In this document: piece by piece, positions 565-49,170 of the stretch | Layout: the number at the start of each line of letters is the position of its first letter | Position numbering within the stretch: position 1 is the first letter of the stretch | Assembly (NCBI GenBank): GCA_050948905.1 | Contig: JBMNES010000001.1 | Span: 821,448 to 885,447 of the forward strand | Length of the DNA stretch: 64,000 nt | Source: Armatimonadota bacterium | GTDB taxonomy: Bacteria > Armatimonadota > UBA5829 | Direction of reading: 5' to 3' | Notes under the pieces: generated by a model | What the model saw: only the letters and a program-made list of their open reading frames with translations | Database searches by the model: none | What the model was told of the DNA's origin: nothing | Program-made: the position numbers and the translations under genes

Positions 565-576
565 TGCGGGGCAGAT

Positions 577-2731: not shown

Positions 2732-2743
2732 GACTGATCGACT

Positions 2744-11804: not shown

Positions 11805-12255
11805 TTAAGTATATCAGCTCGGTTGGCCGTTGTCATTCCGCAGGATGACGAAAAAATAACGCGAAAGCGCGAAAGAAGCGAAAGCCAGAAATAATGGATG
11901 TGCTATCGTAATTTGGGTGGCCAGAGAATGCTTGATCGGACTTCGAACATCAGACCTCGGATATCGAAGAGAAAATGCAGTGGCCGGGCCTCTGTCCCGG
12001 CCATCTTCTGGCTACGAGGCGGCGATTCGGAGATCACCACCTATCAATTTATGAGAACCGACAACCGTGAACCGTAAACCGAAAACCGAAAAAGCAGATT
12101 TCTCGCTGCGCTCGAAATGACATAGGGTTGCGACGTGATCCTGCGACTTCGCGCAGGATGACATAATTGGAGGATGGAAGTTAGAGGTTAGAGGTTAGAG
12201 GTTGGTGAGGCGGCGATTCGGAGATCGCCGCCTATCTACAGGCAAGATCGCCTAA
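11805..12255. repeat. Composite REP/MITE-like intergenic repeat cluster (site 1). Modules: GTCAT-hairpin units, a ~130-nt unit shared with site 3, a GGCCGG..CCGGCC hairpin, GGCGGCGATTCGGAGATCGCCGCC palindromes, an (AACCG)n tract and (GTTAGAG)3
   Basis: Direct sequence comparison with 18962-19175, 16330-16575, 21668-21808, 38975-39175, 43495-43745 and 49085-49170. Confidence 0.8.
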
Positions 12256-12259
12256 CTTA

Positions 12260-13147
12260 TTACAGCGCCTCGGGTTTGCCGCTTTGGGTCGAACGCTCTG
12301 CTGCGTCAAGCATCGCGGTGACCTCCAGCGCGTCTTCCAATGAAGCCGCGGGTTCGGCTCCGTTGAAGAACTCCACTACTTTAATGAGTTGATCCGGATA
12401 CAGCCTGCTGTTATCGCAGACATACGGCGCGGCCTTGCCTTTTTCTCGCAGGCAGCCGCCATAAGCCGACGAACCTTCGGTGAGCTCCACTATGCCCCTG
12501 CGATTGTTCGGGTATTCGATCGTACATACAACCCCGGCTTTATCTCTTCTGGCAAAGACTCCGATAGCCCCCTGGCCCATCGCCCTCTCCAGCATCTCGA
12601 ACGCGTGCACTCCATACCAGACTATCGAGCTACCCGCAGGCGCCTTCCCCAACGCGCCGTAAGTATAGGCATAATCCGCATTGGGGATAGCTTTGCACGA
12701 CTCAATCAGCCCCGGCACGAATCGTAGCGACGATGCTGAAAATACCCTAAGGTTGTTCTCTTTAGCCAGTTTATATATTGCGCGAGCGTTCGTTGTGTTA
12801 TCCGCCATCGGCTTGTCGAGGAAGATCGGCTTTCCCAAAGGCACGCACTTGCGGAAATATTCCAGATGATATGCGGGGTCATTGATTTCGAGCATAATAG
12901 CCTCGCATTCGGCCACTGCCTCGTCGAAATCTTCGGTCACCGTCACGCCCCATTCTTCCAACTGCTTTTGGCGCCCGTCCAGCCCGTTTTTATCCTGAAA
13001 CGGGGTCTCGAACCTCATACAACTGATAACGCGAGCGCCGTCCACCTTTTGATCAGCAGCGACATCCGGCGCCTGCAAGCACTTCGTAAACGCAACCGAA
13101 TGGCTGGTATCCAGCCCCACCATACCGATTCTGATTTCTCCAGACAT
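12260..13147 (-). CDS. Gfo/Idh/MocA family oxidoreductase (NAD-binding)
   Basis: IRIGMVGLDTSHS Rossmann N-terminus; family core motifs. Confidence 0.7.
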   Translation of the reverse strand: MSGEIRIGMVGLDTSHSVAFTKCLQAPDVAADQKVDGARVISCMRFETPFQDKNGLDGRQKQLEEWGVTVTEDFDEAVAECEAIMLEINDPAYHLEYFRKCVPLGKPIFLDKPMADNTTNARAIYKLAKENNLRVFSASSLRFVPGLIESCKAIPNADYAYTYGALGKAPAGSSIVWYGVHAFEMLERAMGQGAIGVFARRDKAGVVCTIEYPNNRRGIVELTEGSSAYGGCLREKGKAAPYVCDNSRLYPDQLIKVVEFFNGAEPAASLEDALEVTAMLDAAERSTQSGKPEAL

Positions 13148-13190
13148 TATCTATCCTCCAGGGCAATCTGCATCTGACGAAAGGTTAGGC

Positions 13191-14237
13191 TCAAGCGGCG
13201 CATTTGTCAAGCGCCTGCCTGATTCTATCGATAGCCTCTTTTACCTCGTCCTTGTCAGTGTGTCTGCAAGTGACCATTCTAACAGCCTTCGGAGCGCGTG
13301 GGCTTACTATCACGCCGGCATCGCCGAGCTTTGCTATGATTTCCTCAGTGGAAAGGCCAGTGCCGGTGTGGTCGACGTTGATGATATTGGTCTGCACTAT
13401 ATCCATATCGACTGATAAGCCAGGAATGGTGTTCAGACCTTCGGCCAGCAATCTGGCGTTGTCGTTATCCTCAGCCAGTCTGTCGATCATTTTTTCAAGC
13501 GCGATTATACCAGCAGCCGCGATAACCCCGGCCTGCCTCATTCCTCCGCCGATTCGTTTTCTGTGGAACCTGGCGCGCTCGATGAACTCGGTGCTGCCAG
13601 CCAAAATGGAGCCGACCGGGCAGCATAGGCCTTTTGATAGACAGAATTGAATGGAGTCGACCTCCGCCGCATATTCCGACGCCGGCACCCCGGCCGCTAT
13701 CGCTGCGTTGAATATCCGTGCGCCGTCGAGGTGAATCGCGAGACCGTGGTCTCGCGCTACTGAGCAAAGTTGTTTATGCAAATCCAGAGGAGTCACCCGG
13801 CCGCCGCTGCGATTGTGTGAGTTTTCCAAACACAGCAGGCGCGGGGTGGCGTAGTGGACATCAGGTTCACGTATGGTCTCCGATAGCACACGCGGGTCGA
13901 TAAGCCCGTTATTGCTTGGTACAGGCAAAGGGAAGAACCCAGCCACGCTGGCCAGCCCGCCGCCTTCGTTGCAGAAAATATGCGCCGTCGGATCGACCAG
14001 CAACGCCTCGCCAAGCCCGCTTGAGTGTGCCATAAGAGCGACCAGGTTTCCCATAGTGCCGCTTGCCACGAACAAGGCGGCCTGCTTGCCGATCTTTTGC
14101 GCGGCCAGTTTTTCGAGCTGGGCCACAGTTGGGTCCTCACCGTAAACGTCGTCGCCGAGCGGCGCATTTCGCATAGCATCAAGCATTTCTTCGGTGGGCA
14201 GGGTCTGTGTATCGCTGCGAAAGTTGAGTATCTCCAT
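13191..14237 (-). CDS. ltaE: Low-specificity L-threonine aldolase (PLP-dependent)
   Basis: FRSDTQTLPTEEMLDAM and DDVYGEDPTV N-terminus typical of the threonine aldolase family. Confidence 0.8.
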   Translation of the reverse strand: MEILNFRSDTQTLPTEEMLDAMRNAPLGDDVYGEDPTVAQLEKLAAQKIGKQAALFVASGTMGNLVALMAHSSGLGEALLVDPTAHIFCNEGGGLASVAGFFPLPVPSNNGLIDPRVLSETIREPDVHYATPRLLCLENSHNRSGGRVTPLDLHKQLCSVARDHGLAIHLDGARIFNAAIAAGVPASEYAAEVDSIQFCLSKGLCCPVGSILAGSTEFIERARFHRKRIGGGMRQAGVIAAAGIIALEKMIDRLAEDNDNARLLAEGLNTIPGLSVDMDIVQTNIINVDHTGTGLSTEEIIAKLGDAGVIVSPRAPKAVRMVTCRHTDKDEVKEAIDRIRQALDKCAA

Positions 14238-14408
14238 GATGGCCTCGGTTTGTTGGTCTAATTCAGATGAAAATTATATCACAGCACATAAAAAGCCACG
14301 TACGGCCGGAACAGTTTTGACCTCAATATGATTTTAGTTTTTTCGGGTGTCGCGTTTCCCTTTCCCTTCCCGGCAGGAATCATCGACACGTTCCGCGAAG
14401 GCATCGAT

Positions 14409-15137
14409 ATGAGAACCGTAATTTTATCCATTGTGGCAACGTTTTTATTGGGGTGTATGTGTATGAGCGATGCTGATCTCAGGCCGATTTACCGGTGCCC
14501 TAAAATAGACAAGGCTCCGGTGATAGACGGCAATCTCGATGACGAGGCTTGGAAAGTAGCTCCCCCTGTGCAGCTAGTCCTCTCCGAAACCGGAAAGCCC
14601 GCCACAAAGCGCACAATCGCGAGGATGTGTTGGGACGATCAGAACCTGTATATCTCATTTGACTGTGACGACGAAGACCTTTGGAACGATTATAAAGAGC
14701 GGGATGATCCTGTTTATAACGAAGAGGTCGTGGAGGCGTTTTTATCTCCGGATTGCAGCCTTAAGCACTATTATGAGATAAACGTAAGTCCTCGCAACGT
14801 GGTCTTTGATGCTTCCATATACGATCCTGTCAACGGCTCACCGCAACCCCCGACTTCCACGGCCTGGGATTGTGTTGGGTTACAGACGGCTGTGATAGTC
14901 GATGGCACGTTGGATTGTCGCACAGATAAAGACAAGGGCTTTAAGGCGGAATTAGCTATACCGTTCGCTGGATTGGGCAGAGATACGCCGAAGTCCGGGG
15001 AGCGATGGCGGGGCAATTTGTTCAGAATCGACCTCAGCCCGAAGCCCGCCGAGTTTCAGGCATGGTCGCCTACCCTCGTCAAGCCTGCGGCATTTCATAT
15101 CCCGGACAGATTCGGGACTATATTCTTTGTGAAGTAG
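14409..15137 (+). CDS. Lipoprotein with carbohydrate-binding family 9-like (CBM9/DOMON-like) domain
   Basis: Lipobox LLGC; DGNLDDEAWKVAPP and QNLYISFDCDDEDLW motifs resembling CBM9. Confidence 0.55.
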   Translation: MRTVILSIVATFLLGCMCMSDADLRPIYRCPKIDKAPVIDGNLDDEAWKVAPPVQLVLSETGKPATKRTIARMCWDDQNLYISFDCDDEDLWNDYKERDDPVYNEEVVEAFLSPDCSLKHYYEINVSPRNVVFDASIYDPVNGSPQPPTSTAWDCVGLQTAVIVDGTLDCRTDKDKGFKAELAIPFAGLGRDTPKSGERWRGNLFRIDLSPKPAEFQAWSPTLVKPAAFHIPDRFGTIFFVK

Positions 15138-15230
15138 CGGTCGAAATCTTGTCGTATTAGCGGAACTGCTCTACAATAAGGAACAATTGGTTGATAAGGC
15201 ACCTGATGGGTGCGCAATGAGGTAGATTAA

Positions 15231-16316
15231 ATGGGGAATTCGTCTGAACTGAGAGTCGGTATAATCGGCTGTGGCGGTATTGCCGGGGGCAAGCACCTGC
15301 CGAGTTTGACCAAAATCGACGCTGTGAATATGGTGGCGTTTTGCGACATCATCGAGAGTCGCGCTGCTGAGAAGGCGGCTGCATACGGCGTAGAAGGTGC
15401 ACGGATCTATACGGATTATCGCAAGATGCTGGAGGAGGAGAAACTCGACGTAGTTCATGTTTGTACGCCGAATAACAGCCACTCCGAGATAAGCGTAGCA
15501 GCTCTGGAAGCTGGGTGCCATGTGATGTGCGAGAAGCCGATGGCCAAAACAGCCGAGGGCGCGCGCAAAATGGTCGAAGCCGCGAAGCGAACCGGGAAGA
15601 AGCTGACTATCGGTTATCAGAACCGCTTCCGGGCGGACTCGAGATACCTGAAGGCGTTCTGCGATGAGGGCGGACTTGGAGAGATTTATTTCGCCAAGGC
15701 ACACGCGCTTCGAAGGCGCGCTGTGCCGACGTGGGGTGTATTCCTTGATGCTGATGCCCAGGGCGGAGGGCCGCTGATCGATATCGGGACCCACGCGCTT
15801 GACCTGACGCTGTGGATGATGAACAACTACGAGCCTGAGTTCGCGGTAGGCAACACATATCGCAAGCTCGGCGATCGAGAGAACTGCGCGAACCCGTGGG
15901 GGCCGTGGGACCCCAAAAAGTTCACGGTTGAGGACTCTGCTTTCGGATATGTCCATTTCAAGAATGGAGCCACCGTGTTTTTGGAGTCAAGCTGGGCTTT
16001 GAACGTGCGACAGAGCGGCGAGGCCATCTGCACCCTTTGCGGAACAGAGGCCGGCGCGGATATGTGGGACGGGCTGCAGATTAACGGGGAGAGATTCAGC
16101 AAGCTCTACGTGGAAAGAGCCCAGCTCGAACCGGGCAGTGTGCCGTTCTATTCCGGAGATGACGAAAGAGACGCCGATGTCGAGGCGAAAATGTGGATCG
16201 AAGCCATCCTGCAGGACAAAGCCCCGGTGGTATTGCCGGAGCAGGCCCTCGTGGTGACAGAGATTCTTGAGGCGATCTATAAATCCAGCGAGACCGGGAA
16301 ACCGGTTTACTTCTAA
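15231..16316 (+). CDS. Gfo/Idh/MocA family oxidoreductase
   Basis: LRVGIIGCGGIAGGKHLP Rossmann; EKPMA motif. Confidence 0.85.
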   Translation: MGNSSELRVGIIGCGGIAGGKHLPSLTKIDAVNMVAFCDIIESRAAEKAAAYGVEGARIYTDYRKMLEEEKLDVVHVCTPNNSHSEISVAALEAGCHVMCEKPMAKTAEGARKMVEAAKRTGKKLTIGYQNRFRADSRYLKAFCDEGGLGEIYFAKAHALRRRAVPTWGVFLDADAQGGGPLIDIGTHALDLTLWMMNNYEPEFAVGNTYRKLGDRENCANPWGPWDPKKFTVEDSAFGYVHFKNGATVFLESSWALNVRQSGEAICTLCGTEAGADMWDGLQINGERFSKLYVERAQLEPGSVPFYSGDDERDADVEAKMWIEAILQDKAPVVLPEQALVVTEILEAIYKSSETGKPVYF

Positions 16317-16329
16317 GGTTAATAAGCCT

Positions 16330-16575
16330 GCGGCCTGACTTCGCTTTGGCTGCAAATTATGTTAGTCCATAGGTGGCGATTTTCCTAATCGCCACCTATC
16401 TATATTTGCCTTTCCGCGCCGCCCTTTGTCATTCCGCGCGTAGTCGCGGAATCCACGGGGTTGCAAAAGCGAAACGAGATCCTGCGACTTCGCGCAGGAT
16501 GACTATAAATGGTGCGCAGGATGACAGTATTGGTTACGGCGAGTGTGTAGAGGCCGGTTTCTATCCCGGCCCGTT
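16330..16575. repeat. REP/MITE-like repeat cluster (site 2): perfect 13-bp hairpin ATAGGTGGCGATT/AATCGCCACCTAT, GTCATTCCGCGCGTAGTCGCGGAATCCAC, GATCCTGCGACTTCGCGCAGGATGAC, GGCCGG-TTTCTATC-CCGGCC
   Basis: Inverted repeats read directly; modules shared with the other sites. Confidence 0.8.
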
Positions 16576-16637
16576 TGTATATCAAGGAGAAAGTGGCCGA
16601 GACGGAGATCGGCCACTACATTTTCGACGTTCCTTGC

Positions 16638-17897
16638 CTACTTCGCCACTACGTTCAACCCCTCTTGCACATCCCCAGTCGATTCATTGGTGATCTGTTT
16701 TTCACCTTTGAACCTGTTGCCGGATATGACAGCAGTGGTGACGTCCTTGCCAAGGTGGATGTCCTTGCGCTCCATCCAGAACCGGCAGTTGGAGATGTTT
16801 ATGTCCCCCGAAAGTGCATCGATCGTGTAAAGGTCAGGGTGTCCGCCCTGGTTCAGGAATGTGCACTGGCTGAAGCTGACGGTGCCTTTGCCGTCGATTT
16901 TGGCTATCTGAGACGCAGGGCCCCAGAATGAGCAGTTGCCTAACTGCACGACACCGTTATGTGTGGCCGAGACCTCCATAAAGATATCGGTTTTGTTGTT
17001 ACCGACGAACTCGCCATTTGTGATAAGCAGTCCGGGTGGCTGGCAGTGGTCGACCAGTATCGCCCTGCCGCACCAGTCGGCTCCGATTCCGAGGAAGTTG
17101 CCATTGACCGAGCCGTCCGCATCTGCGGTAAAGTGATAACCCGTCTTCGCTCCGAATACGAACGTATTATGGACATACTCCCAGTCGGTGCGCTTGAACT
17201 GGAACGCGATTAAATTCTCTCCTATGTAGTTGATAAGATCGTCCCACTTCGGTATGCCTTCGGAACCTGCTCTGCCCCAGTAGTGCGGGTTGAAGTGGAC
17301 GTTTTCGATGCGGCCGATGTCGGTGCATTTGTCGATATGCACCCCGATTTTCAGCGGGCAGCCGAAGCAGTTGCGAATATAGTGTAATTCGTTTTTATAC
17401 TGACCGAAGTCGATGGCTTTGTAGGGGTTTACAAAGGTGCAGTCGATGACGCTGCCGTGCATTCCCTGGCCCTGGATAGTCCACGGATAGGCCAATGTAC
17501 CCGGAATGCGCTGTTCGGGATAGAAGAAAGTGATGCCCTTAACCGCGCTTGATGGGTTCAGCATAATGCACGGAGGGCCGTTTTCGTCTCCCTTGTCTGC
17601 GTAGACGAGAAATACCGTGCCATTGGATAGCTGTGCGTGATGCGGCGCCTCCCAGACTCCGGCGAGGGTGACGCCCTCCGGCACGTTGAGCGGCTTATCT
17701 ATCCGGTATTTGCCCGCTTCGAGTTGCACCACTCCACCGTGATTGGCCCCTGCGTAGTCGAGGGCTTTCTGGATAGCGACGGAATCGTCGGCGACTCCGT
17801 CAGCTTTGGCTCCGTAATCCTTCACGTTGACTGCAGCGCTGGCGCTAATCGCAAATAGCGCGCAGGCGGCTGCGGTTATAATTGTGGTAAAGTTCAT
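16638..17897 (-). CDS. Secreted right-handed beta-helix protein, pectate lyase superfamily (Pectate_lyase_3 / GH28-55-like)
   Basis: GGAGG RBS; signal peptide MNFTTIITAAACALFAISASA; N-terminal VKDYGAKADGVADDSVAIQKALDYA motif typical of this family. Confidence 0.7.
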   Translation of the reverse strand: MNFTTIITAAACALFAISASAAVNVKDYGAKADGVADDSVAIQKALDYAGANHGGVVQLEAGKYRIDKPLNVPEGVTLAGVWEAPHHAQLSNGTVFLVYADKGDENGPPCIMLNPSSAVKGITFFYPEQRIPGTLAYPWTIQGQGMHGSVIDCTFVNPYKAIDFGQYKNELHYIRNCFGCPLKIGVHIDKCTDIGRIENVHFNPHYWGRAGSEGIPKWDDLINYIGENLIAFQFKRTDWEYVHNTFVFGAKTGYHFTADADGSVNGNFLGIGADWCGRAILVDHCQPPGLLITNGEFVGNNKTDIFMEVSATHNGVVQLGNCSFWGPASQIAKIDGKGTVSFSQCTFLNQGGHPDLYTIDALSGDINISNCRFWMERKDIHLGKDVTTAVISGNRFKGEKQITNESTGDVQEGLNVVAK

Positions 17898-18020
17898 AGC
17901 CTGTCCTCCAAGTAAACTCAGCAACAGTATAAGTGAGATAGCACCGGCTGGCAATAGGCCGGGCAGGGAACTCGCGGGTGGGTAGAACGTAATTAATGCA
18001 AAGACCGAACAGGTGATTAA

Positions 18021-18959
18021 ATGGATAAGCCAAACGAGGTTCGCATTTACGATGCGCAGACTGGAGAAGTGAAGACCTTGCCGAAGGTTGTTAAGACTGA
18101 GACGGAGTGGAAAGAGATACTGACTCCTGAGCAGTTTAGAATCACCCGGCTAAGAGGCACTGAGCCGCCGGGCTCCGGCAAATGCGATGTTCCCTCTCGG
18201 CAGCAGCTCGGTATATATCAATGCGTCTGCTGCGGCACGGATTTGTTTAAACACGAGCACAAATACGAGTCCGGCAGCGGCTGGCCGAGCTTCTGGGAGC
18301 CGGTGTCTGATCTGAACCTGATTTTAGAGGTGGATGAATCTTTTGGGATGTATCGCACCGAGGTTATGTGCGCCCGCTGCGATGCTCACCTTGGTCACGT
18401 TTTCGACGACGGCCCTCCGCCCACGGGCAAGCGTTATTGCATAAACGCTGCCTCGTTGCGTCTATCGCAGGACGAGGCTGTTAATCGCGAAACAGCGATC
18501 TTTGCGGCGGGTTGTTTTTGGGGAGTAGAGTCGGCGTTCAGAGAGTTGATCGGCAAAGGGGTCATCTCAACCAGGGTCGGCTATACCGGCGGCCACACCG
18601 ATCATCCCACATATCAGTCCGTCTGCGCCGGTGGGACAGCTCACGCTGAGGCGGTTGAGGTGGTCTTTGATCCCAATAAGATAACCTACCAGCAGCTTTT
18701 GGATCTGTTCTGGAGCATTCACGACCCAACTACTCTCAACAGGCAGGGGTTGGATATAGGGGATCAGTACCGCTCAGCAATATTTTATACCTCGGCTGAG
18801 CAGAAAGAGGCAGCCGAAAAATCTAAGGAACAGCTTGCACAATCTGGAAAATTGCCCAGGCAGATTGTGACTGAGATAACCGAGGCGACGGAGTTCTGGG
18901 AGGCCGAGGAATATCATCAGCAATATAAAGATAAACGGGGCTATGGGGGCGCCAGATAA
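18021..18959 (+). CDS. msrAB: Bifunctional peptide-methionine sulfoxide reductase, MsrB-MsrA fusion
   Basis: MsrB CxxC..CxxC zinc motifs with GWPSF; MsrA GCFWG motif in the C-terminal half. Confidence 0.85.
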
Positions 18960-18961
18960 CG

Positions 18962-19175
18962 GGGAAGGGAAAACGCGAAAGAGCGAAAGGAGCGAAAGTT
19001 AGAAATTTAGATATGCTTTCGTATTTTGGGTGACCTAAGAAGGCTTGATCGGACTTCGAACATCAGACCTCGGACCTCGAAAAAAGCAGATTTCTCGCTT
19101 CGCTCGAAATGACAGGGGGTGGGCACTGGTTATGAGGCGGCGATTCGGAGATCGCCGCCTATCTTATTTAACATA
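18962..19175. repeat. REP/MITE-like repeat cluster (site 3): ~130-nt unit ~80% identical to 11850-11990, plus the GGCGGCGATTCGGAGATCGCCGCC palindrome
   Basis: Direct comparison with site 1. Confidence 0.8.
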
Positions 19176-19194
19176 ACCGACAACACAATACTGG

Positions 19195-20181
19195 TTATCC
19201 TCTTCGTCTCAAAACAGCCGAGCCTGCAAGCGCTATCAGCGAGCATAATCCGGCTATTGATGACGGCTCGGGTACCTGTTCCAGCTTAACAATGTAGTTG
19301 TAATTGTTCGCATAGCCATCGGTATAGTAATTGACTCCTGCGTAGATGCCACCTGTCTCGGCGTCTATGCGCAGGAAGGTGATCGCGGGGGATTCAACAT
19401 CCTCGCGGCTCAAAGTGGCCAGGGTCTCAATCGAAACTCCGTCCCAGCGCTGCAGCTTAGCCTGGCCGCCGGAGTTATCGCTGAACAGCAGCCTTCCCAG
19501 ACTATCAAATGCCAAACCTGCTGCTCCGTTGACCGCGATAGCTGCATCAGCGTCAGCGATTCCCAGCACATCGCCTTCAATCGCGCCCTGAACTTTGGCT
19601 GAACTCCACATATAAATATTCGTCGCAAATGGGTAGTTGCTCGGGCAATAATATAGATTTCCAGCAGCATCAAGCGCGACAGGACCAGAGTAACCCGCTG
19701 CGGTTGCCACCGGCGTTGTGTTATTGCTGGCATCCAGAGCATAGACCGTGTTGCCAGCGACTACAAATGCATTGTTGCCGTAGAAGTCGATGTCGTAGTT
19801 CCAGTCGAGTCGAGTTACGTCGTTGACGACGGCGGTAACAGGGTCGAATGTGCGGACCATACTGCTGGTATAATCGTTGTCTGCGAAATAGACCAGCCCA
19901 TTGTTATATTTCACAAACGATCCGAAGACCGAGGCCGAATAAGTGTAAAGAGTCTGCACATCGGCGCCGGATTGGGTGATCTCGCGCACGCTGTGGCCGT
20001 CATTTATCACGTAATTTCCATTGGGAAGCACATCAAAGCCACCCAAAAATGCCCCAGCAGGCAGAGAGAGAAACAGGTCGGTGCAGTTATAGGTGGCAGA
20101 GTCCAGCAACCCCGCTCCCCAACTCGCCGTCGCAGATAGAATAATTGCTGCGATGATAATCAGTTTCGTAGTTTTTTTCAT
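19195..20181 (-). CDS. PEP-CTERM sorting-domain protein with repeated beta-propeller-like blades (GNLYY / GRLLFSD / GLVYFAD)
   Basis: C-terminal VPEPSSIAGLCSLIALAGSAVLRRRG; N-terminal signal peptide. Confidence 0.8.
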   Translation of the reverse strand: MKKTTKLIIIAAIILSATASWGAGLLDSATYNCTDLFLSLPAGAFLGGFDVLPNGNYVINDGHSVREITQSGADVQTLYTYSASVFGSFVKYNNGLVYFADNDYTSSMVRTFDPVTAVVNDVTRLDWNYDIDFYGNNAFVVAGNTVYALDASNNTTPVATAAGYSGPVALDAAGNLYYCPSNYPFATNIYMWSSAKVQGAIEGDVLGIADADAAIAVNGAAGLAFDSLGRLLFSDNSGGQAKLQRWDGVSIETLATLSREDVESPAITFLRIDAETGGIYAGVNYYTDGYANNYNYIVKLEQVPEPSSIAGLCSLIALAGSAVLRRRG

Positions 20182-20203
20182 TTCTTGTCCTCCTTAATTG
20201 AAC

Positions 20204-21664
20204 TTAGTTTGTTTTGATGTCGTTTTGAGGGTCAATCACCCTGACGACAACTGAACCGTCGTCATCGCGGTCGCATATCACGGTAGCCGATAGATATGGC
20301 GCGCCGCTTACCGAATATGGGCCGCTCCAAACCAGTTTTGCGCTTGCAGAACCGTCGTTGATCTCGCAATAGCCGGGGCCTTTGGAGCATACCCTGCCCC
20401 AAACCCGCACCCTCATTCCGTAGGCGAGGTCGCTGGACAGGGTTTTGAGGTTCATTCCGACAGGCTCAATTTGCGCAGCGCCCGGTTCGGTGCAGGTCCA
20501 CATCGGGTCCGGAAATGTGAATCTGCCGGATGTTTTGGAGAGGTGACCAGTGATGGTCATTTTGTCGCCGACTGCCACTATTTTGCTGTCGACTGCGATG
20601 CTGGTGTCGTAGATGACTTTCATAGCGGCCGATCTGTTCGGGGCTTCGATGAAAAACGAATCCGGCAGGACAGCGGTTACGATAGCCTCTGTAATCAAAG
20701 CATATTCGCCATCTGGCAGTTTCTTTACTTCGCCGATGGAAAGCGCGGGACGACACGCCGCCACTGCGTCGATTTCGGCTGATATTTCGCCTAATCCGGG
20801 GAAATAGTCGCCGCTGACCGCATCCGTCAGCCGCACATATTTGAACCAGCTTATATTTGCCTTGATCTCGTTGCCATAGGAATCAATAGCCGGGACGCCG
20901 GGTGCACTTTGCAGCACTGCGTCGGCTATATCGAACGCGTCACCTCCTCCGGAAACATAGTCGAAACGTTCTGTATTGAACCCGCTGGGCACGCTCGGGC
21001 GATCAGGCACGGTATATAGCTCCTCCGCGCTGCGTGTCACCCAACTGAACGGGTTTTTGCTGCCGGCAGTCGGCAGTTCGATGGTGGGCGTGCAATCTGC
21101 ATAGCCGTAAAGTTTTGTTGACGAAAACCCGGTATCCGAGGACGGCACATAGGGGTTGGAGCCGGGCGCAGGGATTAGATCATTGGGCAGGATATTCGGC
21201 CGAATCAGATACCACTGCTCTCCGTCCTGGCTGATCTCGACAAAGGCCGGCTCCTGCCATCTGAAGTTCGGGTCAGCATATAGCGGCAGGTTTTCCGTCA
21301 TACTCAGCCGAAAATACGCATTACCGAATACTATGAAATCCAGACCGTATGGGTTTCGAGGGTCGTCTATAACAGGTGTCGAGAAACCGACCGCCACCGA
21401 AGCCGTCGTGCCTGCAGCGTTACGGTCGCCGAGTGAGACGCAGTAGCCATTATCATAGCTGTGCGCAGGCTCGTAAACCTGCCCGCCAGTCGGGGCGCCC
21501 AGGCATCTGAACGGGTCGTTATACAGAGGGTTGTTCACAAACTGCCCAGTGCCCGGAATATACCAGCTCTGCTGAGTTATATCCGCAAACCAGGCTTTGG
21601 CATTCACGGAAGCCGCAGTTGCAAAAGTCAAACATAAGATTATCGCAAGAGTAATTCGTTTCAT
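20204..21664 (-). CDS. Secreted hypothetical protein (~487 aa from MKRITL), no recognisable family
   Basis: Signal peptide MKRITLAIILCLTFATAASVNA; GAGG RBS; the ORF-track 5' extension runs into a repeat element and is probably not coding. Confidence 0.6.
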   Translation of the reverse strand: MKRITLAIILCLTFATAASVNAKAWFADITQQSWYIPGTGQFVNNPLYNDPFRCLGAPTGGQVYEPAHSYDNGYCVSLGDRNAAGTTASVAVGFSTPVIDDPRNPYGLDFIVFGNAYFRLSMTENLPLYADPNFRWQEPAFVEISQDGEQWYLIRPNILPNDLIPAPGSNPYVPSSDTGFSSTKLYGYADCTPTIELPTAGSKNPFSWVTRSAEELYTVPDRPSVPSGFNTERFDYVSGGGDAFDIADAVLQSAPGVPAIDSYGNEIKANISWFKYVRLTDAVSGDYFPGLGEISAEIDAVAACRPALSIGEVKKLPDGEYALITEAIVTAVLPDSFFIEAPNRSAAMKVIYDTSIAVDSKIVAVGDKMTITGHLSKTSGRFTFPDPMWTCTEPGAAQIEPVGMNLKTLSSDLAYGMRVRVWGRVCSKGPGYCEINDGSASAKLVWSGPYSVSGAPYLSATVICDRDDDGSVVVRVIDPQNDIKTN

Positions 21665-21667
21665 TTT

Positions 21668-21808
21668 CCAAACCTCAATATAGCTTCGCACCTCGAACTT
21701 CCGACCTCGAAAAAGCAGACTTCTCACTTCGTTCGAAGTGACATAGTTGTTGACTACGTTCACAATCGTAATTTCGAGATGGCGATCTCCGAATCGCCAC
21801 CCCAAAGC
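21668..21808. repeat. REP/MITE-like repeat (site 4) lying inside the riboswitch-controlled operon, between the DUF1559 gene and the secreted-protein gene
   Basis: TCACTTCG-TT-CGAAGTGA hairpin; GGTGGCGATTCGGAGATCGCCATC palindrome (minus-strand sense, includes G-U wobble). Confidence 0.75.
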
Positions 21809-21810
21809 CC

Positions 21811-22653
21811 CTATTTATTATCAAAAAGCGAGTTATCATCCCCGCCAAAATAGCCAATATTGTGCTTCTCATTGTTGCCGCCATAGAAGAAGTTCGGTGG
21901 CCTGGTGAAACTCATCTTTTCCGCGCTTACATGTCCATCACACCAGCCGACATTGGCCACCCCGTTGTGCCTGAAATGAATGCTCGGAGTGGTGGGGTAG
22001 GCTGTCCCATCCGGGGTTACGTGATACGGCGGTTCGGCGAATGAGTACTGCATCGGCCCGCCGTCGCTGGTAATCGCAGCGTCGGTGAACATTACCGTGC
22101 GGGCGGGATATGCGATGTCTCCCGTGCGAGAGGCTATTTTGTTAGATTCAGGCGGATAATTGCGATACGCCGTCCCGCCGACATAAGCCTGGTTATATCC
22201 AAACCCGCCGCAACCCGCCTCGAACGTGCCCTTTAATTGAACCGCGGTCGGGCAGATTTTCAAGCCACCGGATCTGCCGAAATACACCCACAGAGGGCCT
22301 TTATTCGCCTCGAATTCCGCGCCGACACGCGGCCTTACCCCGTGCCACCGATGCAGATTCGGCCCGGTGATATCTGATGCGGCTGGGACATAGGTTCCGG
22401 AGTAGTCGTCGGAATAGGCCAGGTTTGCGGCGAGAAGCTGTTTGAGCTGTGCGGCGCAACGGGTTTTTCTGGCGGATTCTTTAGCCACTCCGAACACAGG
22501 AAATAATATGGCGGCCAGAATCGCGATGATGGCGATGACCACCAGCAGTTCGATGAGTGTGAATCCGCTGTACAAACAGAAACGGGCCTCTCGCCCATTT
22601 CGGATATTTTTCAGGACGGAAGCCCGGTTTATTCGGGGTGTTGCGTCCGACAT
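21811..22653 (-). CDS. Prepilin-type N-terminal cleavage/methylation domain protein of the DUF1559 / H-X9-DG family (type II pseudopilin-like)
   Basis: G^[24 protein letters not shown] class III signal; C-terminal [13 protein letters not shown] (H-X9-DG); GGAGG RBS. Confidence 0.85.
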
Positions 22654-22659
22654 CTTTGC

Positions 22660-22844
22660 CTCCGAAGATGCTGCGCTAATGATGCGAAAGGGCAGGTCTT
22701 CTGGCTTCCGGATCGCTCTAGCCGGCTACCTTCCCAGTCCTTTTAGACCAGTGGATAACGCCGGTTCGTCCCCGGTTACAGCGGCGGGCCCGCGACGGTT
22801 TTTCACCGTCTTCCCTTAACCCAAATCGCCAAATATTCAGTTGC
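22660..22844 (-). ncRNA. Cobalamin (AdoCbl) riboswitch in the 5' leader of the DUF1559-secreted protein-PEP-CTERM operon
   Basis: Minus-strand RNA carries the cobalamin riboswitch core elements: GGGAAG; GGUGAAAAACCGUC hairpin; GCGGGCCCGCCGCUGUAA; CCACUG..GGGAAGG; B12 box AGCCAGAAGACCUGCC. A CAUCUU[CGGAGGC]AAGAUG hairpin sequesters the SD and AUG. Confidence 0.85.
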
Positions 22845-22850
22845 TACAGG

Positions 22851-22879
22851 AGTATAACAAGGAAGCGGAGTCAAGTCAA
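22851..22879 (-). promoter_or_regulatory. Sigma70-like promoter for the riboswitch transcript (minus strand): TTGACT-N17-TATACT
   Basis: -35 at 22874-22879 and -10 at 22851-22856 on the minus strand with 17-nt spacer; riboswitch begins ~7 nt downstream. Confidence 0.6.
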
Positions 22880-22934
22880 TGGCATTTTGTCGATTCAACC
22901 GAGTCTATTTTACTGCTCAATTCGATGAATCGCG
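22879..22934. repeat. ~55-nt conserved element, copy A (ATGGCATTTTGTCGATTCAAcCGAGTcTAtTTTACTGCTCAATTCGAtGAATCGCG). It has two dyad-symmetric boxes, abuts the -35 of the riboswitch promoter and overlaps the last codons of the DUF3343 gene
   Basis: 52/56 identical to 25745-25800; it is read in different frames in the two copies, so it is conserved at the nucleotide level and does not encode a conserved peptide. Confidence 0.75.
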
Positions 22935-23137
22935 GCAGTCTCTACGCCCACAGTCTGCAACAACTGTGCTACTTCAGGCTCCCGGTTCCAATCGAAGCGC
23001 AGCGAAATGCCGCAGTCGCTGGAAAACTGGCGCGGCACTGGAACCAATGCGCAGTCGATTTCAGCCTCGTTTAAGACCTTTTCAGCGGCGAATGCGGCCG
23101 ATGTGGTATGAAACAGCACTACCCCAAAATTATCCAT
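22910..23137 (-). CDS. DUF3343 (putative Se/S carrier protein-like) small protein
   Basis: 75 aa; VVLFHTTSAAFAAEKVL..ALVPVPRQFSSDCGISLRF matches the DUF3343 pattern. Confidence 0.7.
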   Translation of the reverse strand: MDNFGVVLFHTTSAAFAAEKVLNEAEIDCALVPVPRQFSSDCGISLRFDWNREPEVAQLLQTVGVETAAIHRIEQ

Positions 23138-24281
23138 CAGCAGCTATCTCACTTACTGCGTCTATGGCACGAGTTACATCTTCTTCGGATGTAAAAGGCC
23201 CGACTCCGAACCTAACCACGCCTTCCGGAAACGTGCCGATGATTTTATGTGCGGCAGGGGCGCAGTGCAGGCCAACCCGACAGAGTATGCCATAATCGTC
23301 GTCGAGTCGTTGCCCCACCTCAGAGACATATTTGCCCTTTATCCGAAACGATACAAGCGGGACTCGATCGGAGGCCTCTACCGGCCCGAACACCTCGACT
23401 CCCGGTATGCTTATTAAACCATCAATTAGGTATTTTATGAGCCGGGTTTGGTGTTGATGCAGCGAATCGCACTCCGGAGAACATATCCATCGAATCGCCG
23501 CTCCCAGCCCCGCTATTCCGACTCCATTTGGCGTCCCGGCCTCAAGCCTGTCAGGTAAAACCTCAGGGTGTGTTTCCGATTGGGACCTGCTGCCTGTCCC
23601 GCCCTGCATAAATGTGCTGATCTCACTTTCCGCCCGGTCGGTGCATATAACCAGCCCACCTGTGCCGGGTGGGCCTTGCAGTGATTTGTGGCCGGTGAAG
23701 GCTATGAAATCAGCGTATAAATCTGCCGCCCTGATCGGCACTACCCCGGCTGTCTGCGCCGCATCCAATAGGGTCATCGCTCCTGCGCAGTGCGCCATTT
23801 GAAATATATCTGATACCGGCATAATGCGTCCTATGACATTGCTGGCGTGGGTCATAACAACAAGGCGGACGTCATGTGACAGGAGTTGCCGAAATGCGTC
23901 AAGGTCGATTTGACCAGACGGATCGCACGGCGCAACCAGCACGCGCACTCCACGAGCTTCAGCGGTACGCAGGGGTCGCATCACGGAGTTGTGCTCAACA
24001 GAAGTCGTCAACACCGTATCCCCAGGCTTAAGGGTTGTATGAATCACCATATTCAGCGCCTGGGTCGCGTTATTGGTGAAGATTACCCTGTCTGTTTTGG
24101 TCGCTCCGAAGAAGTTCGCCAGCCCCTCCCTGGCTTCGTGAACAACCCGCCCTGCCGCTATCGAGAGTCTGTGCCCGGAGCGGCCGGGGTTTGCTCCGGT
24201 TGTCTCAAGAAAGTCCTTCATCGCCTCTACGACGACAGGCGGTTTGGGCCAGGATGTGGCGGGATGATCCAGATATATCAT
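23130..24281 (-). CDS. Class V aminotransferase-fold PLP enzyme, cysteine desulfurase / selenocysteine lyase-like
   Basis: N-terminal IYLDHPATSWPKPP..; FTNNATQALN; PLP-lysine region AFTGHKSLQGPPGTGGL; 4-bp overlaps with both flanking genes. Confidence 0.75.
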   Translation of the reverse strand: MIYLDHPATSWPKPPVVVEAMKDFLETTGANPGRSGHRLSIAAGRVVHEAREGLANFFGATKTDRVIFTNNATQALNMVIHTTLKPGDTVLTTSVEHNSVMRPLRTAEARGVRVLVAPCDPSGQIDLDAFRQLLSHDVRLVVMTHASNVIGRIMPVSDIFQMAHCAGAMTLLDAAQTAGVVPIRAADLYADFIAFTGHKSLQGPPGTGGLVICTDRAESEISTFMQGGTGSRSQSETHPEVLPDRLEAGTPNGVGIAGLGAAIRWICSPECDSLHQHQTRLIKYLIDGLISIPGVEVFGPVEASDRVPLVSFRIKGKYVSEVGQRLDDDYGILCRVGLHCAPAAHKIIGTFPEGVVRFGVGPFTSEEDVTRAIDAVSEIAADG

Positions 24282-24499
24282 TTAACAAGTTCCAACCGGA
24301 ACTCACCGTTGTCCAGTTGAGTTTGTCGAACGTTCCAATTCTCCATTTCGGCCGCCCTCTTGACGTTGTCTCGCGTTGTATTCGAGTCCACTAGAACATG
24401 AACAATCGTAGCGTCTTTTTGTTGCATAGCCTGCTTTGCGTGCAAAACCGGTTCGGGACAGGATAACCCTCTCACGTCGATTTCAATAGCTTCGTTCAT
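24278..24499 (-). CDS. TusA-like sulfurtransferase (YedF/SirA family)
   Basis: 73 aa; CPxP active-site motif GLSCPEPV. Confidence 0.8.
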   Translation of the reverse strand: MNEAIEIDVRGLSCPEPVLHAKQAMQQKDATIVHVLVDSNTTRDNVKRAAEMENWNVRQTQLDNGEFRLELVK

Positions 24500-24502
24500 A
24501 TA

Positions 24503-25642
24503 TCAGCCCCCCACGCTCCTCTTTTCTTTCATATAAATTCCGGTGACAATGCAAAAAACCAGTCCGATGACCACGGCGACCAATCCGTACGGACCGGGGC
24601 CTTTGGCGCTGCTGGCAAGGCTGAAATTGTGCGCGAACGCTGCACCTGTCAGCATCCCCAGCACAAATACTCCTGCGTCACCGTCGCCTTCGCCGCTCAA
24701 AAACACCTGCCGACCCGGACAGCCTCCGGCAAGGGTAAATGCAAGCCCCGCGAGCAACATACCGGCGAAGTTCATAAACCAATCCGTGTGCGCTATCGGC
24801 TGATTAACAAAACCAGCCTTGAACTGGCCTAATGCGATATTAGTGATGAACGCGGCGATAATCAGCGCGATCACCCCGGAAAGCAGGTGCCCATCTCGCA
24901 TCAGTGCGTAGTCGCGTATCGCCCCGACTGTGCAGAATCGAGACCGCTGCGCCATAAAGCCTATGATAAGACCGATGGCAAGAGTAATCAGAATAGGCGC
25001 GTGCATACTGCCAGGCCCTTCGGTCGAGAAAAATACCGGCCCTGTCGGCTGCCCGGCGGCATCACGACCTGCCAATGGAGCAAATATCAAAAGAACCAGC
25101 AGGCCGATTGCAAGCGCAGGCATTATATATCCCACAGGCCACGCAGCGCCTTTGTTTCTGCCAAGGCTGAAGCCGTTCTTCAGAAAGCTGATTCCGATCA
25201 AGACCCCAACCACCAGTCCGGCAATGCCCGGAATAGAGTTCAAATCGCCACCAGCCAGCCTCAGAAAAGCTCTCCACGGGCACCCCAGAAATACTAAAGC
25301 GCCGATCATCGCAAATGCCCCTAATAGGAAACGCATAATAGGAGAGGAACCGCTGCGCGACTTGAACTCGCGAAACATCAATGCCGCAACAAACGCGCCG
25401 AGCACAAAACCGATGATCTCCGGTCGAATATACTGCACGACACCCGCCCGATGCAGACCCAACGCCCCGGCTATGTCTCTGGTAAAGCAGGCAACGCAAA
25501 TGCCCATATTCCCCGGGTTTCCAAGACGTACTAGGATAGGCGCGAGTATTCCTACGCATATCCCTGTAACGGCCGGGCCATATTTAGAGGTGAGAAGATT
25601 CTTAACAGAAGATATGGCAACAGATCCTTTCTTGCCGGACAA
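24503..25642 (-). CDS. YeeE/YedE family inner-membrane transporter (thiosulfate/selenium uptake family). Start uncertain: the ORF-track ATG at 25864 runs through the conserved repeat and looks non-coding there, so a TTG near 25640 is proposed
   Basis: Multiple TM helices; paired Cys-containing motifs (GICVACFTRD, RSRFCTVGAIRD, LAGGCPGRQV) typical of YeeE/YedE. Confidence 0.7.
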   Translation of the reverse strand: MSGKKGSVAISSVKNLLTSKYGPAVTGICVGILAPILVRLGNPGNMGICVACFTRDIAGALGLHRAGVVQYIRPEIIGFVLGAFVAALMFREFKSRSGSSPIMRFLLGAFAMIGALVFLGCPWRAFLRLAGGDLNSIPGIAGLVVGVLIGISFLKNGFSLGRNKGAAWPVGYIMPALAIGLLVLLIFAPLAGRDAAGQPTGPVFFSTEGPGSMHAPILITLAIGLIIGFMAQRSRFCTVGAIRDYALMRDGHLLSGVIALIIAAFITNIALGQFKAGFVNQPIAHTDWFMNFAGMLLAGLAFTLAGGCPGRQVFLSGEGDGDAGVFVLGMLTGAAFAHNFSLASSAKGPGPYGLVAVVIGLVFCIVTGIYMKEKRSVGG

Positions 25643-25744
25643 GAGGTGGCATGTTCTTAACTGGTCATCAGGTGAAATTGTAACGATGCTGCACGCTTTG
25701 GTCAAGAAATCCTGCCGCTGTTGTATATATCCCTCTGCTATAAC

Positions 25745-25800
25745 ATGGCATTTTGTCGATTCAATCGAGTGTAATTTACTGCTCAATTCGACGAATCGCG
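25745..25800. repeat. ~55-nt conserved element, copy B, in the divergent region between yeeE and hrcA
   Basis: ATGGCATTTTGTCGATTCAATCGAGTGTAATTTACTGCTCAATTCGACGAATCGCG, with dyads TCGATTcAATCGA and ATTCGaCGAAT. Confidence 0.75.
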
Positions 25801-25917
25801 AGAGAAAGGCACTAAACAAGCCAAAATCGATGGATAATCCTGAAGCAGCGAGTCTCCTTGACATTGAAGCGGGTGGGTGTTAATATCCAAATGTGTCTTA
25901 TGATTCGGAGCATTGGG

Positions 25918-26961
25918 ATGAAAGACTCACACACTGCCTCCCTGGACCGCCGCAAACAGGTCATACTGAAAGCCGTCGTGACAGACTACGTTCGGACGGC
26001 TGAGCCGGTTGGGTCGCGTTCGTTGATGACTCACTACGGCCTGGGAGTAAAATCCGCCACAATTCGCAGCGAGATGGCCGAGCTTTCCGAGCTGGGTTAT
26101 CTGCATCAGCCGCACACTTCAGCAGGCAGAGTCCCATCGGACAGGGGCTACAGGTTCTATGTAGACTGGTTGATGGGCGCGGCGGGATTGGCGCGGGTAG
26201 AGGTGGAGCATATTCGCAGCAGGCTAACGCCAAGACGTGCGGAGATGGATATCATCCTGGAGCAGACCTGCAAAACCCTCTCGGACCTCGCTCACCAGGT
26301 ATCGGTGGCTACATATCCTTCATTCGAAGACGCGAAAATCAGCCATATAAGCGTGGCGAAGGTTGGCAGGGGACGACTGTTGGCGCTGCTTGTATTAGAC
26401 AGCGGCCGTGTGCTGCATGAGTTTCTGGATATTTCGGTTGACTCGATTGATACGGCTGCGACTACAGAATTTTTAATGGGCAAGTTCGAGGGAATGACCC
26501 TGGATGCCGCCAAGTCCATTACGGTGGACGCAGATCTCGTCCCTGTTTTGCAGGAGATCACTTCAAAACTGGTCAATTTGATCGACAGCGAGTCGTCAAT
26601 GGCGTCGGACGCCGACGTCACCACAGAGGGCACCTCATATATTATGCAGCAACCTGAGTTTCGTGACACGAGACGCCTGGAGGCGCTGCTTTCCGTGCTG
26701 GAACAGCGAAGCGCACTTTACAAGCTGGTGTCCTCCGCGTATCTTGGGCCGGGGGTTACGGTGATGATCGGCTCGGAGAACCCGGTGGAGCAGATGCAGG
26801 ATTGCAGCTTCGTTTGCGCGAGATACAAGATTATGGGACGGCCAGCCGGCACTATCGGCATCCTCGGCCCCACTCGTATGGACTACCGCCGAGCTGTAAG
26901 CGCGGTGGATTTTATGGCCGATAGCCTCGGAAATCTGCTTACTTCTCTCAGCGTGGCCTGA
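25918..26961 (+). CDS. hrcA: Heat-inducible transcription repressor HrcA
   Basis: GGAG RBS; N-terminal RRKQVILKAVVTDYVRTAEPVGSRSL winged-helix typical of HrcA; ~347 aa. Confidence 0.8.
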   Translation: MKDSHTASLDRRKQVILKAVVTDYVRTAEPVGSRSLMTHYGLGVKSATIRSEMAELSELGYLHQPHTSAGRVPSDRGYRFYVDWLMGAAGLARVEVEHIRSRLTPRRAEMDIILEQTCKTLSDLAHQVSVATYPSFEDAKISHISVAKVGRGRLLALLVLDSGRVLHEFLDISVDSIDTAATTEFLMGKFEGMTLDAAKSITVDADLVPVLQEITSKLVNLIDSESSMASDADVTTEGTSYIMQQPEFRDTRRLEALLSVLEQRSALYKLVSSAYLGPGVTVMIGSENPVEQMQDCSFVCARYKIMGRPAGTIGILGPTRMDYRRAVSAVDFMADSLGNLLTSLSVA

Positions 26962-28447: not shown

Positions 28448-28801
28448 CTAGGGCGCAGATGGCGCGGCGTACTTCACCAGATCTCCCTCGACCGGCTTTT
28501 CAGCGCCCTCCGCAACATCGAACGTGATCTCGGCGGTCTTGTCCTCAATCTTGGTAATACTTCCAGTGGCGATCAACTCCGTGAGAACCTTCAGCACCTC
28601 CCCGGTGTCCGGGTCTTTCAGCACCCTGCCCTTTTTATGAAGCTCGACCTTATCGCCCGGTAAATACCCTTTTGATGTCCCGATATTCGCGATGATAACC
28701 GGGCCTTCTACATTAAGCACGACTCCGTCGGGGCGCGCCATCGGACGATTTTTGGGTGTGAGCACCAGTTTTTTCGCGTCAAGTGCAGCGCAGAAATTCA
28801 A
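28448..28801 (-). CDS. Hypothetical protein, translationally coupled (ATGA overlap) downstream of the CsgG-like gene
   Basis: ORF only; no family recognised. Confidence 0.4.
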   Translation of the reverse strand: MNFCAALDAKKLVLTPKNRPMARPDGVVLNVEGPVIIANIGTSKGYLPGDKVELHKKGRVLKDPDTGEVLKVLTELIATGSITKIEDKTAEITFDVAEGAEKPVEGDLVKYAAPSAP

Positions 28802-29475
28802 AGCCAGTCATCGATGGCTTTCTTTGTTGCGACGCCGAGGATGGTGTTCATAAAGTCTGTGCTGCCGAACTCGATGCCTCCCAGCCCACTGCGACCGAGT
28901 GCGGCTATCTGGAACTTGCCGCGTGAATCCTCTCCTCTGCCGTTATAGCTGCCCAAAATCTCCGCAGTCTCTGCGTCAACAACCCGGATATCCACCTCAA
29001 CATTCGCTTTGGTGTTTGAGGACCTGACGCCCGCAAGCCCGCCGATTACTCCGCCAATCCCGCCTGTATTGCGGGTTGTCCAGGCGAACTGCGTGACTTT
29101 GCCCATAAGAAGATAATCGACTCCGACCACCTTTCCGATTTTAACTGCTGTACGGGCGTCGACCCGCGAAGATGCGCCGAGGTCCTGCTCGGCTATGGCT
29201 TTATCCAGCAGGTTGCGCTCCATCAGCCTGAATCTGTTCTTTTCAAGCATCGTGGTGGTCAATATATCGGCCAGCCCGGTGCCGACGTCCCAGTTTGTGC
29301 CCCACCAGGCTTCTCTCTTTATAGCGCCGTCGTCCAAAGCCACGATCGCAATCGAGGGTCGCTCGGCCATAGGCACATATTGTTCCTGTGGTTGTGGTGT
29401 CGCCTCCGCAGAGTATAGCGGCACAGCCAGCACCACGAACAGGCCTATCATAATCGTCATACTTATTCGTCTCAT
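28798..29475 (-). CDS. CsgG-family (curli-type secretion channel-like) protein with a signal peptide and no lipobox
   Basis: ADILTTTMLEKNRFRLMERNLLDKAIAEQDL resembles the CsgG core; signal peptide MTIMIGLFVVLAVPLYSAEA. Confidence 0.55.
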   Translation of the reverse strand: MRRISMTIMIGLFVVLAVPLYSAEATPQPQEQYVPMAERPSIAIVALDDGAIKREAWWGTNWDVGTGLADILTTTMLEKNRFRLMERNLLDKAIAEQDLGASSRVDARTAVKIGKVVGVDYLLMGKVTQFAWTTRNTGGIGGVIGGLAGVRSSNTKANVEVDIRVVDAETAEILGSYNGRGEDSRGKFQIAALGRSGLGGIEFGSTDFMNTILGVATKKAIDDWL

Positions 29476-29538
29476 AAAAGCCCTCCTTAGTACGAAGATT
29501 CGCCTTAGTCACTCTATCGGAGGATAAATGCCTTCTCA

Positions 29539-49084: not shown

Positions 49085-49170
49085 TGTGGTCATCCTGCGC
49101 GAAGTCGCAGGATCACGTCCCGCCTGTGTTTTCTGTGGATTCCGCGACTGCGTGCGCAATGACAGAGCTT
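49085..49170. repeat. REP-like repeat (site 7): GTCATCCTGCGCGAAGTCGCAGGATCAC and GTGGATTCCGCGACTGCGTGCGCAATGAC
   Basis: Modules shared with sites 1 and 2. Confidence 0.75.

Follow-up and report, generated by a model that had tools for sequence, protein, structure and literature searches.

A 56-nucleotide direct repeat around a selenium-associated gene cluster in an uncultured Armatimonadota bacterium: probable by-product of a lineage-specific rearrangement

Background

Short copies of nearby DNA set within non-homologous filler are known from the junctions of structural variants, where they are described as templated insertions, although most documented cases are eukaryotic or experimental (PMC6379672; PMC12891019). 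Breaks joined by bacterial Ku/LigD can take up captured DNA fragments (PMC6379672), and repair synthesis is prone to both quasipalindrome correction and template switches (bioRxiv 10.1101/2023.08.09.552703; PMC12891019). Quasipalindrome template-switch mutations are known in E. coli (PMC7202029); in yeast such errors are strongly elevated during double-strand-break repair synthesis, together with switches to other sequences (bioRxiv 10.1101/2023.08.09.552703; PMC12891019). Homogenisation of the arms of inverted repeats has also been described (PMC8604942). Here we examine a 56-nucleotide (nt) direct repeat in a 64-kb stretch of the genome of an uncultured Armatimonadota bacterium (assembly GCA_050948905.1, contig JBMNES010000001.1, positions 821,448 to 885,447), the whole of which is referred to below as the window. 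The two copies of the repeat, A and B, bracket a minus-strand cassette of four genes associated with selenium and sulfur (Se/S).

The gene content of this cassette is itself of a described type. A selenium-associated cluster of YedE, a SirA(TusA)-like protein, a member of the Sec-lyase family and DUF3343 was reported by Lin et al. 2015 (PMC5322559), so that the tidy four-gene operon in a selenium context, to which the original prediction drew attention, was known already. The question is therefore what the repeat represents. Two readings had been offered, namely a shared operator or activator site that co-regulates the Se/S cassette with a neighbouring cobalamin (B12)-responsive operon, and the footprint of a mobile or recombined cassette. 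On the basis of comparisons with related genomes, we consider it quite probable that copy B is the by-product of a lineage-specific rearrangement, and neither a conserved regulatory site nor an attachment site. Of the known kinds of event, templated or captured insertion at a structural-variant junction suits the repeat best.

The repeat pair and its source

The two copies are 56 nt each, lie in the same orientation with 2866 nt from A to B, and are identical at 52 of 56 positions, which confirms the original observation; they form the only such pair in the window. At up to three mismatches the 56-mer matched A and B only (shuffled sequences gave 0 in 100), and when the window was compared with itself by BLAST the pair (E = 1.8e-16) was distinct from an unrelated family of dispersed intergenic repeats.

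Copy A joins the 3' end of the DUF3343 gene to the spacer in front of the riboswitch-operon promoter (Table 1). On the gene strand it begins GCG ATT CAT CGA ATT GAG CAG TAA, which encodes the DUF3343 tail AIHRIEQ*, and it ends on the T that opens the -35 hexamer TTGACT; the overlap with both the last codons of the gene and the promoter, noticed at the outset, is thus confirmed by the sequence. Copy B retains the same frame as AIRRIEQ*, but it is non-coding, because an in-frame TAG lies 12 nt (four codons) upstream of that frame. It was at first placed in the leader of the transporter gene; it lies instead upstream of the promoter, 40-95 nt from the -35 hexamer of the cassette promoter TTGACC-17-TACAAT.

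HrcA homologues assign the window to an uncultured Armatimonadota lineage. Comparisons were made with three relatives: L020, with ~80% nucleotide identity across the cassette; GCA_964494345.1 (loci L025, L026 and L029), with ~93%; and the lineage of loci L032-L035, likewise with ~93%. The tail AAIHRIEQ of copy A is homologous to AATHQIDQ in L020 and to AAIHPIDS in a further outgroup, L021. The junction that runs from DUF3343 through the spacer and the -35 hexamer into the riboswitch is syntenic in L020, and the context of copy A is syntenic in L020, L026 and L032; the copy itself is 100% identical in L025-L028 and L032-L035. Each relative has a single copy; B is missing from L020, L026, L029 and L032 and from the remainder of GCA_964494345.1. 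When one representative genome per GTDB species was scanned with a 22-mer that A and B share, the sole match was copy A of GCA_964494345.1. Copy A is thus the native sequence and copy B a derived, lineage-specific duplicate of it. Two scans of JGI metagenomes with patterns degenerate for A and B gave no match and are uninformative on intermediates.

Within the species the arrangement is uniform. The contigs examined (about 20, of 22 read) come from many assemblies of sewage and wastewater; they are at least 99.98% identical to the window, and all have both copies, the same four differences between them and an identical junction.

A rearrangement with copy B in its junction

In the three relatives the gene order is ltaE, on the opposite strand, followed by yedE-tusA-csd-DUF3343, the riboswitch and the DUF1559 operon. 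The gene next to ltaE (13191-14237) in the window is CBM9 and not yedE. By blastn, positions 1-133 of L020 correspond to window 14153-14285 and positions 296-3380 to window 25658-22570 reversed; similarly, L026 6484-8570 corresponds to window 12206-14283 and L026 8562-15172 to window 25729-19135 reversed. The segment between these points is an 11.4-kb block, inverted relative to the related lineages and now abutting hrcA. The relatives place hrcA elsewhere: in L011, L017 and L029 the order is aroA-aroC-RRM_1-hrcA, with RRM_1 on the minus strand, so that RRM_1, not yedE, lies upstream of hrcA.

The right-hand edge of the block can be fixed closely, as the homology to L026 stops at 25729 and that to L029 begins at 25845 (for L011, L014 and L017 it begins at 25855-25857). 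The 115 nt in between are without counterpart in the relatives, and copy B sits inside them, flanked by orphan DNA on both sides (Table 1). Orphan DNA is also found at the left-hand junction, between the region upstream of ltaE and the CBM9 gene, and the breakpoint at the CBM9 5' end adjoins a dispersed repeat. At the level of synteny, the alignments show that the window lineage underwent a rearrangement with at least three breakpoints, located in the ltaE|yedE spacer, at the CBM9 5' end and in the RRM_1-hrcA gap. An inverted duplication of 10-12 nt at the ltaE|yedE breakpoint (ATATCACAGC, 14276-14285, versus ATATACAACAGC on the minus strand near 25735-25724), of the kind that would fit an inversion through staggered breaks, was considered and rejected as too short and imperfect.

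Palindromes perfected in copy B

All four differences between the copies (4/4) are of one type: the B-specific change makes a Watson-Crick pair in a local palindrome. At position 21, a C>T change yields TCGATTcAATCGA. At positions 27 (C>G) and 30 (T>A), CTAT becomes GTAA, the complement of TTAC, which yields GTAAtTTAC. At position 48, a T>C change yields ATTCGaCGAAT; here the His codon of copy A is ancestral, as judged from the outgroups L020 and L021. Among palindromes with arms of at least 4 nt, three are perfect in B and none in A, and in dyad content B falls in the top 0.04% of the 56-nt stretches of the window whereas A is ordinary. In a simulation, a post hoc test, random variants of A with four substitutions reached the dyad score of B at a rate of only ~1e-4. 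The original prediction of two dyad-symmetric boxes in each copy therefore holds in part: both boxes are perfect in B but imperfect in A, and B has in addition a third, GTAAtTTAC.

These changes are best fitted by quasipalindrome template-switch errors. As in the described mutations, every difference is templated by the opposite arm and converts a mismatch into a pair, and one is a two-base change within a single arm. The locus departs from them in that three separate palindromes are affected within 56 nt, one of them from a very weak precursor, and in that their 1-nt centres make hairpin-templated correction of the pairs next to the centre sterically awkward.

Origin of copy B

The relatives show that in the ancestor ltaE was divergent from yedE-tusA-csd-DUF3343, behind which lay the riboswitch promoter and the B12-regulated DUF1559 operon, with hrcA elsewhere beside the RRM gene. 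They show likewise that breaks in the ltaE-yedE spacer, at the CBM9 5' end and upstream of hrcA were rejoined such that the 11.4-kb block became inverted against hrcA, with filler in both joints. In the further step that we infer, 56 nt may have been copied or captured during joining from the DUF3343 end and the pre-riboswitch spacer into the right joint, in the same orientation, either through a template switch in repair synthesis or through fragment capture in end joining. The copied 56 nt, the filler of orphan DNA and the corrected palindromes could all stem from a single bout of low-fidelity, switch-prone repair synthesis. The repeat would bracket exactly four genes because the copied stretch comes from the 3' end of the last gene and landed at the edge of the block, immediately upstream of the promoter of the first.

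Several features of templated insertions are present at the locus. The copy lies at a synteny breakpoint, within non-homologous filler, and lineages with the ancestral order lack it; its source is identifiable, nearby (~2.8 kb inside the inverted block) and in its native context. The case differs from the documented ones (PMC6379672; PMC12891019) in that its mechanism is read from comparative genomics alone and in that microhomology is not visible.

Some observations weigh against this origin. By inspection, microhomology at the ends of copy B amounts to 0-1 nt. The sources of the 15-nt, 44-nt and ~55-nt orphan fillers (25730-25744, 25801-25844 and 14284-14339) were not found, blastn-short against the window and seven loci having given chance matches only, and the mechanism is accordingly an inference. 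At least three breakpoints are required, and what became of the displaced segment (NYN ... aroA-aroC-RRM) was not observed. The copy count in the bacterium's own genome is that of the 64-kb window. The palindrome statistic is from a post hoc test, and the precursor of GTAAtTTAC in A is a very weak quasipalindrome with 2/4 pairs, which makes it a poor substrate for template switching.

If copy B arose in this way, the locus is a clean case from nature, and one that can be dated, of a multi-breakpoint rearrangement in an uncultured Armatimonadota lineage with filler that includes a 56-nt copy of nearby sequence. Copy B differs from its source only by palindrome-perfecting changes, a type of signature that has been the subject of experiments in E. 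coli and yeast. As a further outcome, the yedE and hrcA promoters now stand back to back, and recombination between the two direct repeats, which are 93% identical, could in principle remove the cassette. In practical terms the significance is modest. The gene cluster is known already, and the repeat is real and has an explanation, with a small mechanistic curiosity attached to it. For annotation purposes, we find no evidence for an operator common to the Se/S cassette and the B12-responsive operon, nor for mobility of the cassette.

Alternative explanations

Short direct repeats commonly arise by tandem duplication followed by deletion. Copy B could accordingly be the remnant of a second cassette, if the region from the yedE promoter to the DUF3343 spacer had been duplicated in tandem and then deleted save for the last 56 nt; B does keep the frame and stop of the DUF3343 3' end and has the orientation of A. 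We nevertheless judge this unlikely. It needs two extra events whose end points coincide with the synteny breakpoint, and orphan DNA parts B both from the homology upstream of yedE (by ~8-15 nt) and from hrcA (by 44 nt). Among the contigs and relatives examined there was neither a lineage with two cassettes nor an intermediate, and the palindrome-perfecting pattern is left unexplained.

A regulatory explanation, which we regard as similarly improbable, holds that copy B is, or has become, a working site in which selection perfected three palindromes for one or more dimeric proteins upstream of yedE and hrcA, whose promoters stand back to back; by extension, B might be coupled to any factor that acts on the riboswitch promoter from copy A. 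The four symmetry-raising substitutions and the extreme rank of B in the window for perfect short palindromes speak for such a site, and so does its position, which spans about -75 to -130 relative to the yedE start site (about -93 to -148 relative to that of hrcA) and is usable by upstream activators. In addition, the palindromes have 1-nt centres and bring no gain in single-strand folding, and hence look like dyads of duplex DNA, not hairpins: RNA and DNA folding of both strands of both copies was no better than that of shuffled sequence (z -1.65 to +0.29). There is a resemblance to operators of co-regulated promoters in that dyad-symmetric boxes stand upstream of two promoters.

The comparative evidence points the other way. 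Three lineages with the same promoters (L020, L026 and L032) are without B, and the boxes are not kept in orthologous promoters. In A the boxes are imperfect, and its sequence is unconstrained at depth, because the 100-nt bin that contains it is 30% diverged in L020 and the bin of the riboswitch 3%; A does fall within a 258-nt stretch that does not vary among the three close lineages. The copies are also placed unequally, A abutting the -35 hexamer of the riboswitch promoter and B ending 40 nt upstream of that of the yedE promoter. Beyond A and B, box 1 has one match in the window, inside a coding region, and box 3 has 6 matches versus 3.3 expected, which is no enrichment. The recurrence of the 56-mer near other operons that the original prediction called for was seen neither in the 64-kb window nor in the species-representative scan, where the copy A already mentioned was the only hit. 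Operators differ, moreover, in that here the whole 56 nt is 93% identical, inclusive of spacers and coding tail, which argues for recent copying and not for selection on contact bases. With at least 99.98% identity the population is clonal and offers no polymorphism as a test of constraint, and no regulator gene was identified. With copy A diverged by ~30% at depth, no further copies and unequal promoter distances, and with B absent from the three relatives, the proposal of a shared operator or activator site is unsupported.

Several other functional candidates within the repeat were rejected. An RNA element was ruled out by the comparison of folding with shuffles, the only Rfam match being the cobalamin riboswitch. 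A consensus scan for a promoter or terminator within the repeat was without match. The plus strand of B encodes only MAFCRFNRV*, and a 138-amino-acid (aa) open reading frame (ORF) that starts in A is antisense to real genes. CIRCE, the HrcA operator, had no match in the window at up to three mismatches.

Copy B might also be a newborn cis-regulatory element, a piece of the operon's 3' end that a rearrangement dropped upstream of yedE and hrcA and that selection, through four substitutions, shaped into a three-dyad array for a dimeric regulator. We hold this to be doubtful indeed; if true, it would be a dated case of a binding site arising from a repair insertion.

A mobile four-gene cassette with the repeats as its attachment sites (attL/attR or integron attC-like) is highly improbable, even though 56-nt direct repeats with internal dyad symmetry literally bracket the four genes as such sites would flank a gene set: three lineages have the same cassette but the repeat only once; what moved is 14286-25729 (11.4 kb), a unit that the repeats do not delimit; Pfam scans of 14286-25800 found no integrase, recombinase or transposase, the only IS110 transposase being in strain L001, several kb off; no cassette-less variant occurs among the same-species contigs examined; a reading of the sequence finds no RYYYAAC or GTTRRRY core sites at the repeat ends; and the cassette has its own conserved promoter, unlike integron cassettes. 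An integron attC site is ruled out by sequence and synteny together. The synteny comparison suggested at the outset, which found the cassette in 3/3 lineages with a single copy of the repeat, separates the two halves of the mobility proposal: the repeat is indeed a recombination footprint, but the cassette is not a mobile unit, as an 11.4-kb block moved and the junction of the cassette with the riboswitch region is syntenic in all relatives.

The gene cluster and neighbouring features

The features of the locus are collected in Table 1.

Table 1. Features of the repeat locus and the rearranged block, in window coordinates
Feature	Coordinates	Strand	Evidence and remarks
Left rearrangement junction	14284..14339		~55 nt orphan DNA between ltaE upstream region and 5'-truncated CBM9 gene
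Inverted 11.4-kb block	~14286..25729		blastn of L020 and L026 vs window; now abuts hrcA; contains CBM9, GFO/IDH, pectate-lyase-like, MsrBA, two unknown genes, DUF1559, riboswitch, Se/S cassette
DUF1559/prepilin-like gene	21811-22653		Downstream of cobalamin riboswitch
Cobalamin riboswitch aptamer	22674..22839	-	97.5 bits
Riboswitch-operon promoter-like site TTGACT-17-TATACT	22851..22879	-	Hexamers kept in L020
Copy A (source copy)	22879..22934	-	DUF3343 gene last 7 codons and stop (22910-22934) plus 31-nt spacer to riboswitch-promoter -35
DUF3343/Se_S_carrier small protein	22910..23137	-	PF11823 75.9 bits (cut-off 25), residues 6-72 of 75
Class V aminotransferase, cysteine-desulfurase/selenocysteine-lyase family (pyridoxal phosphate [PLP] enzyme)	23130..24281	-	TIGR01977 416.5 bits vs 377
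TusA/SirA-like sulfurtransferase	24278..24499	-	PF01206 54.9 bits (cut-off 28.6)
yedE, YedE-family putative selenium transporter	24503..25615	-	TIGR04112 485 bits vs cut-off 200; Sulf_transp match
Cassette promoter-like site TTGACC-17-TACAAT	25677..25705	-	Hexamers kept in L020 and L026, spacer varies
Right rearrangement junction	25730..25844		115 nt without counterpart in relatives: ~15 nt orphan, copy B, 44 nt orphan
Copy B (derived copy)	25745..25800	-	Frame AIRRIEQ*; perfect palindromes TCGATTcAATCGA, GTAAtTTAC, ATTCGaCGAAT
hrcA promoter-like site (25858-25886) and hrcA gene (25918-26961)	25858..26961	+	

The cassette shares all four families with the cluster of PMC5322559, and both its YedE and its PLP enzyme pass the cut-offs of the corresponding TIGRFAM models, TIGR04112 and TIGR01977. 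It differs in that the sulfurtransferase is TusA-only, not full-length YedF (50.9 bits versus the TIGR03527 cut-off of 110), in that the PLP enzyme falls below the SclA cut-off (379 bits versus 525), and in that TusA has been deleted in one sister lineage. In that lineage (L032 8765-10001) the cassette runs without a tusA gene from the end of yedE at 9967 to the start of the PLP enzyme at 10001, and TusA is therefore dispensable there.

The transporter had been named YeeE; by its TIGR04112 score it is of the YedE type, not YeeE/TsuA. Alignment of ortholog starts (L020, L026), which had been recommended for fixing the true start of the gene, shows that the 453-aa ORF extending through copy B is spurious, and aligns ATG with the ATA at 25615-25613. 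This codon is ATA in L026 as well and lies 9 nt after a Shine-Dalgarno-like motif, AAAGGA; the sole other in-frame start, the TTG at 25642, is TTA in L026. The gene is apparently without a canonical start at the conserved position (window 25613-25642), and translation probably begins at the ATA at 25615 or the TTG at 25642.

On the other side of copy A (20204-22839), the cobalamin riboswitch controls the DUF1559 prepilin-like protein and two proteins without a Pfam match (~486-533 aa and 328 aa), an arrangement kept in 3/3 relatives. The operon may be an uncharacterised B12-related surface or uptake system. A block of ~440 nt (window 22505-22945) that spans the DUF3343 3' end, the promoter, the riboswitch and the DUF1559 5' end is almost invariant among three lineages that are otherwise ~7% diverged, which suggests a recent sweep or gene flow. 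Many Logan contigs break ~400 nt past DUF3343, inside the DUF1559 5' end, probably because this end is repeated in paralogs.

At the left-hand end of the inverted block, the CBM9 gene (14328-15137) has been 5'-truncated by the rearrangement and encodes 269 aa, versus 290-313 aa in the relatives. Its signal peptide and promoter have probably been replaced, and its start now follows the ~55 nt of orphan DNA.

Dispersed intergenic repeats that resemble repetitive extragenic palindromic (REP) sequences or miniature inverted-repeat transposable elements (MITEs), with a core of approximately AAAGCAGATTTCTCGCTTCGCTCGAAATGACAGGGGGTG, occur at 11858-12237, 16424-16512, 18972-19184, 21684-21743, 38993-39130, 43570-43637 and 49089-49167. 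One copy in the NYN-CBM9 spacer of L026 and L032 lies exactly at the left breakpoint of the window, and the copies at PYNP|GFO and between MsrBA and the 328-aa gene are the breakpoints of a second inversion, which separates L032 from L026. At the equivalent inversion breakpoint L032 carries a group II intron reverse transcriptase (16405-17625). In strain L001 the IS110-family transposase (14067-15026) lies beside the 328-aa gene, where the window has a dispersed-repeat spacer.

Beyond hrcA, a CsgG-like gene (~28450-29480) follows a gene for a B12-binding radical SAM protein. It could be a variable or error-prone tract: it is intact, at 342 aa, in some strains and split in others that are at least 99.98% identical, into products of 31+309, 56+267, 97+225, 97+255 or 128+169 aa.

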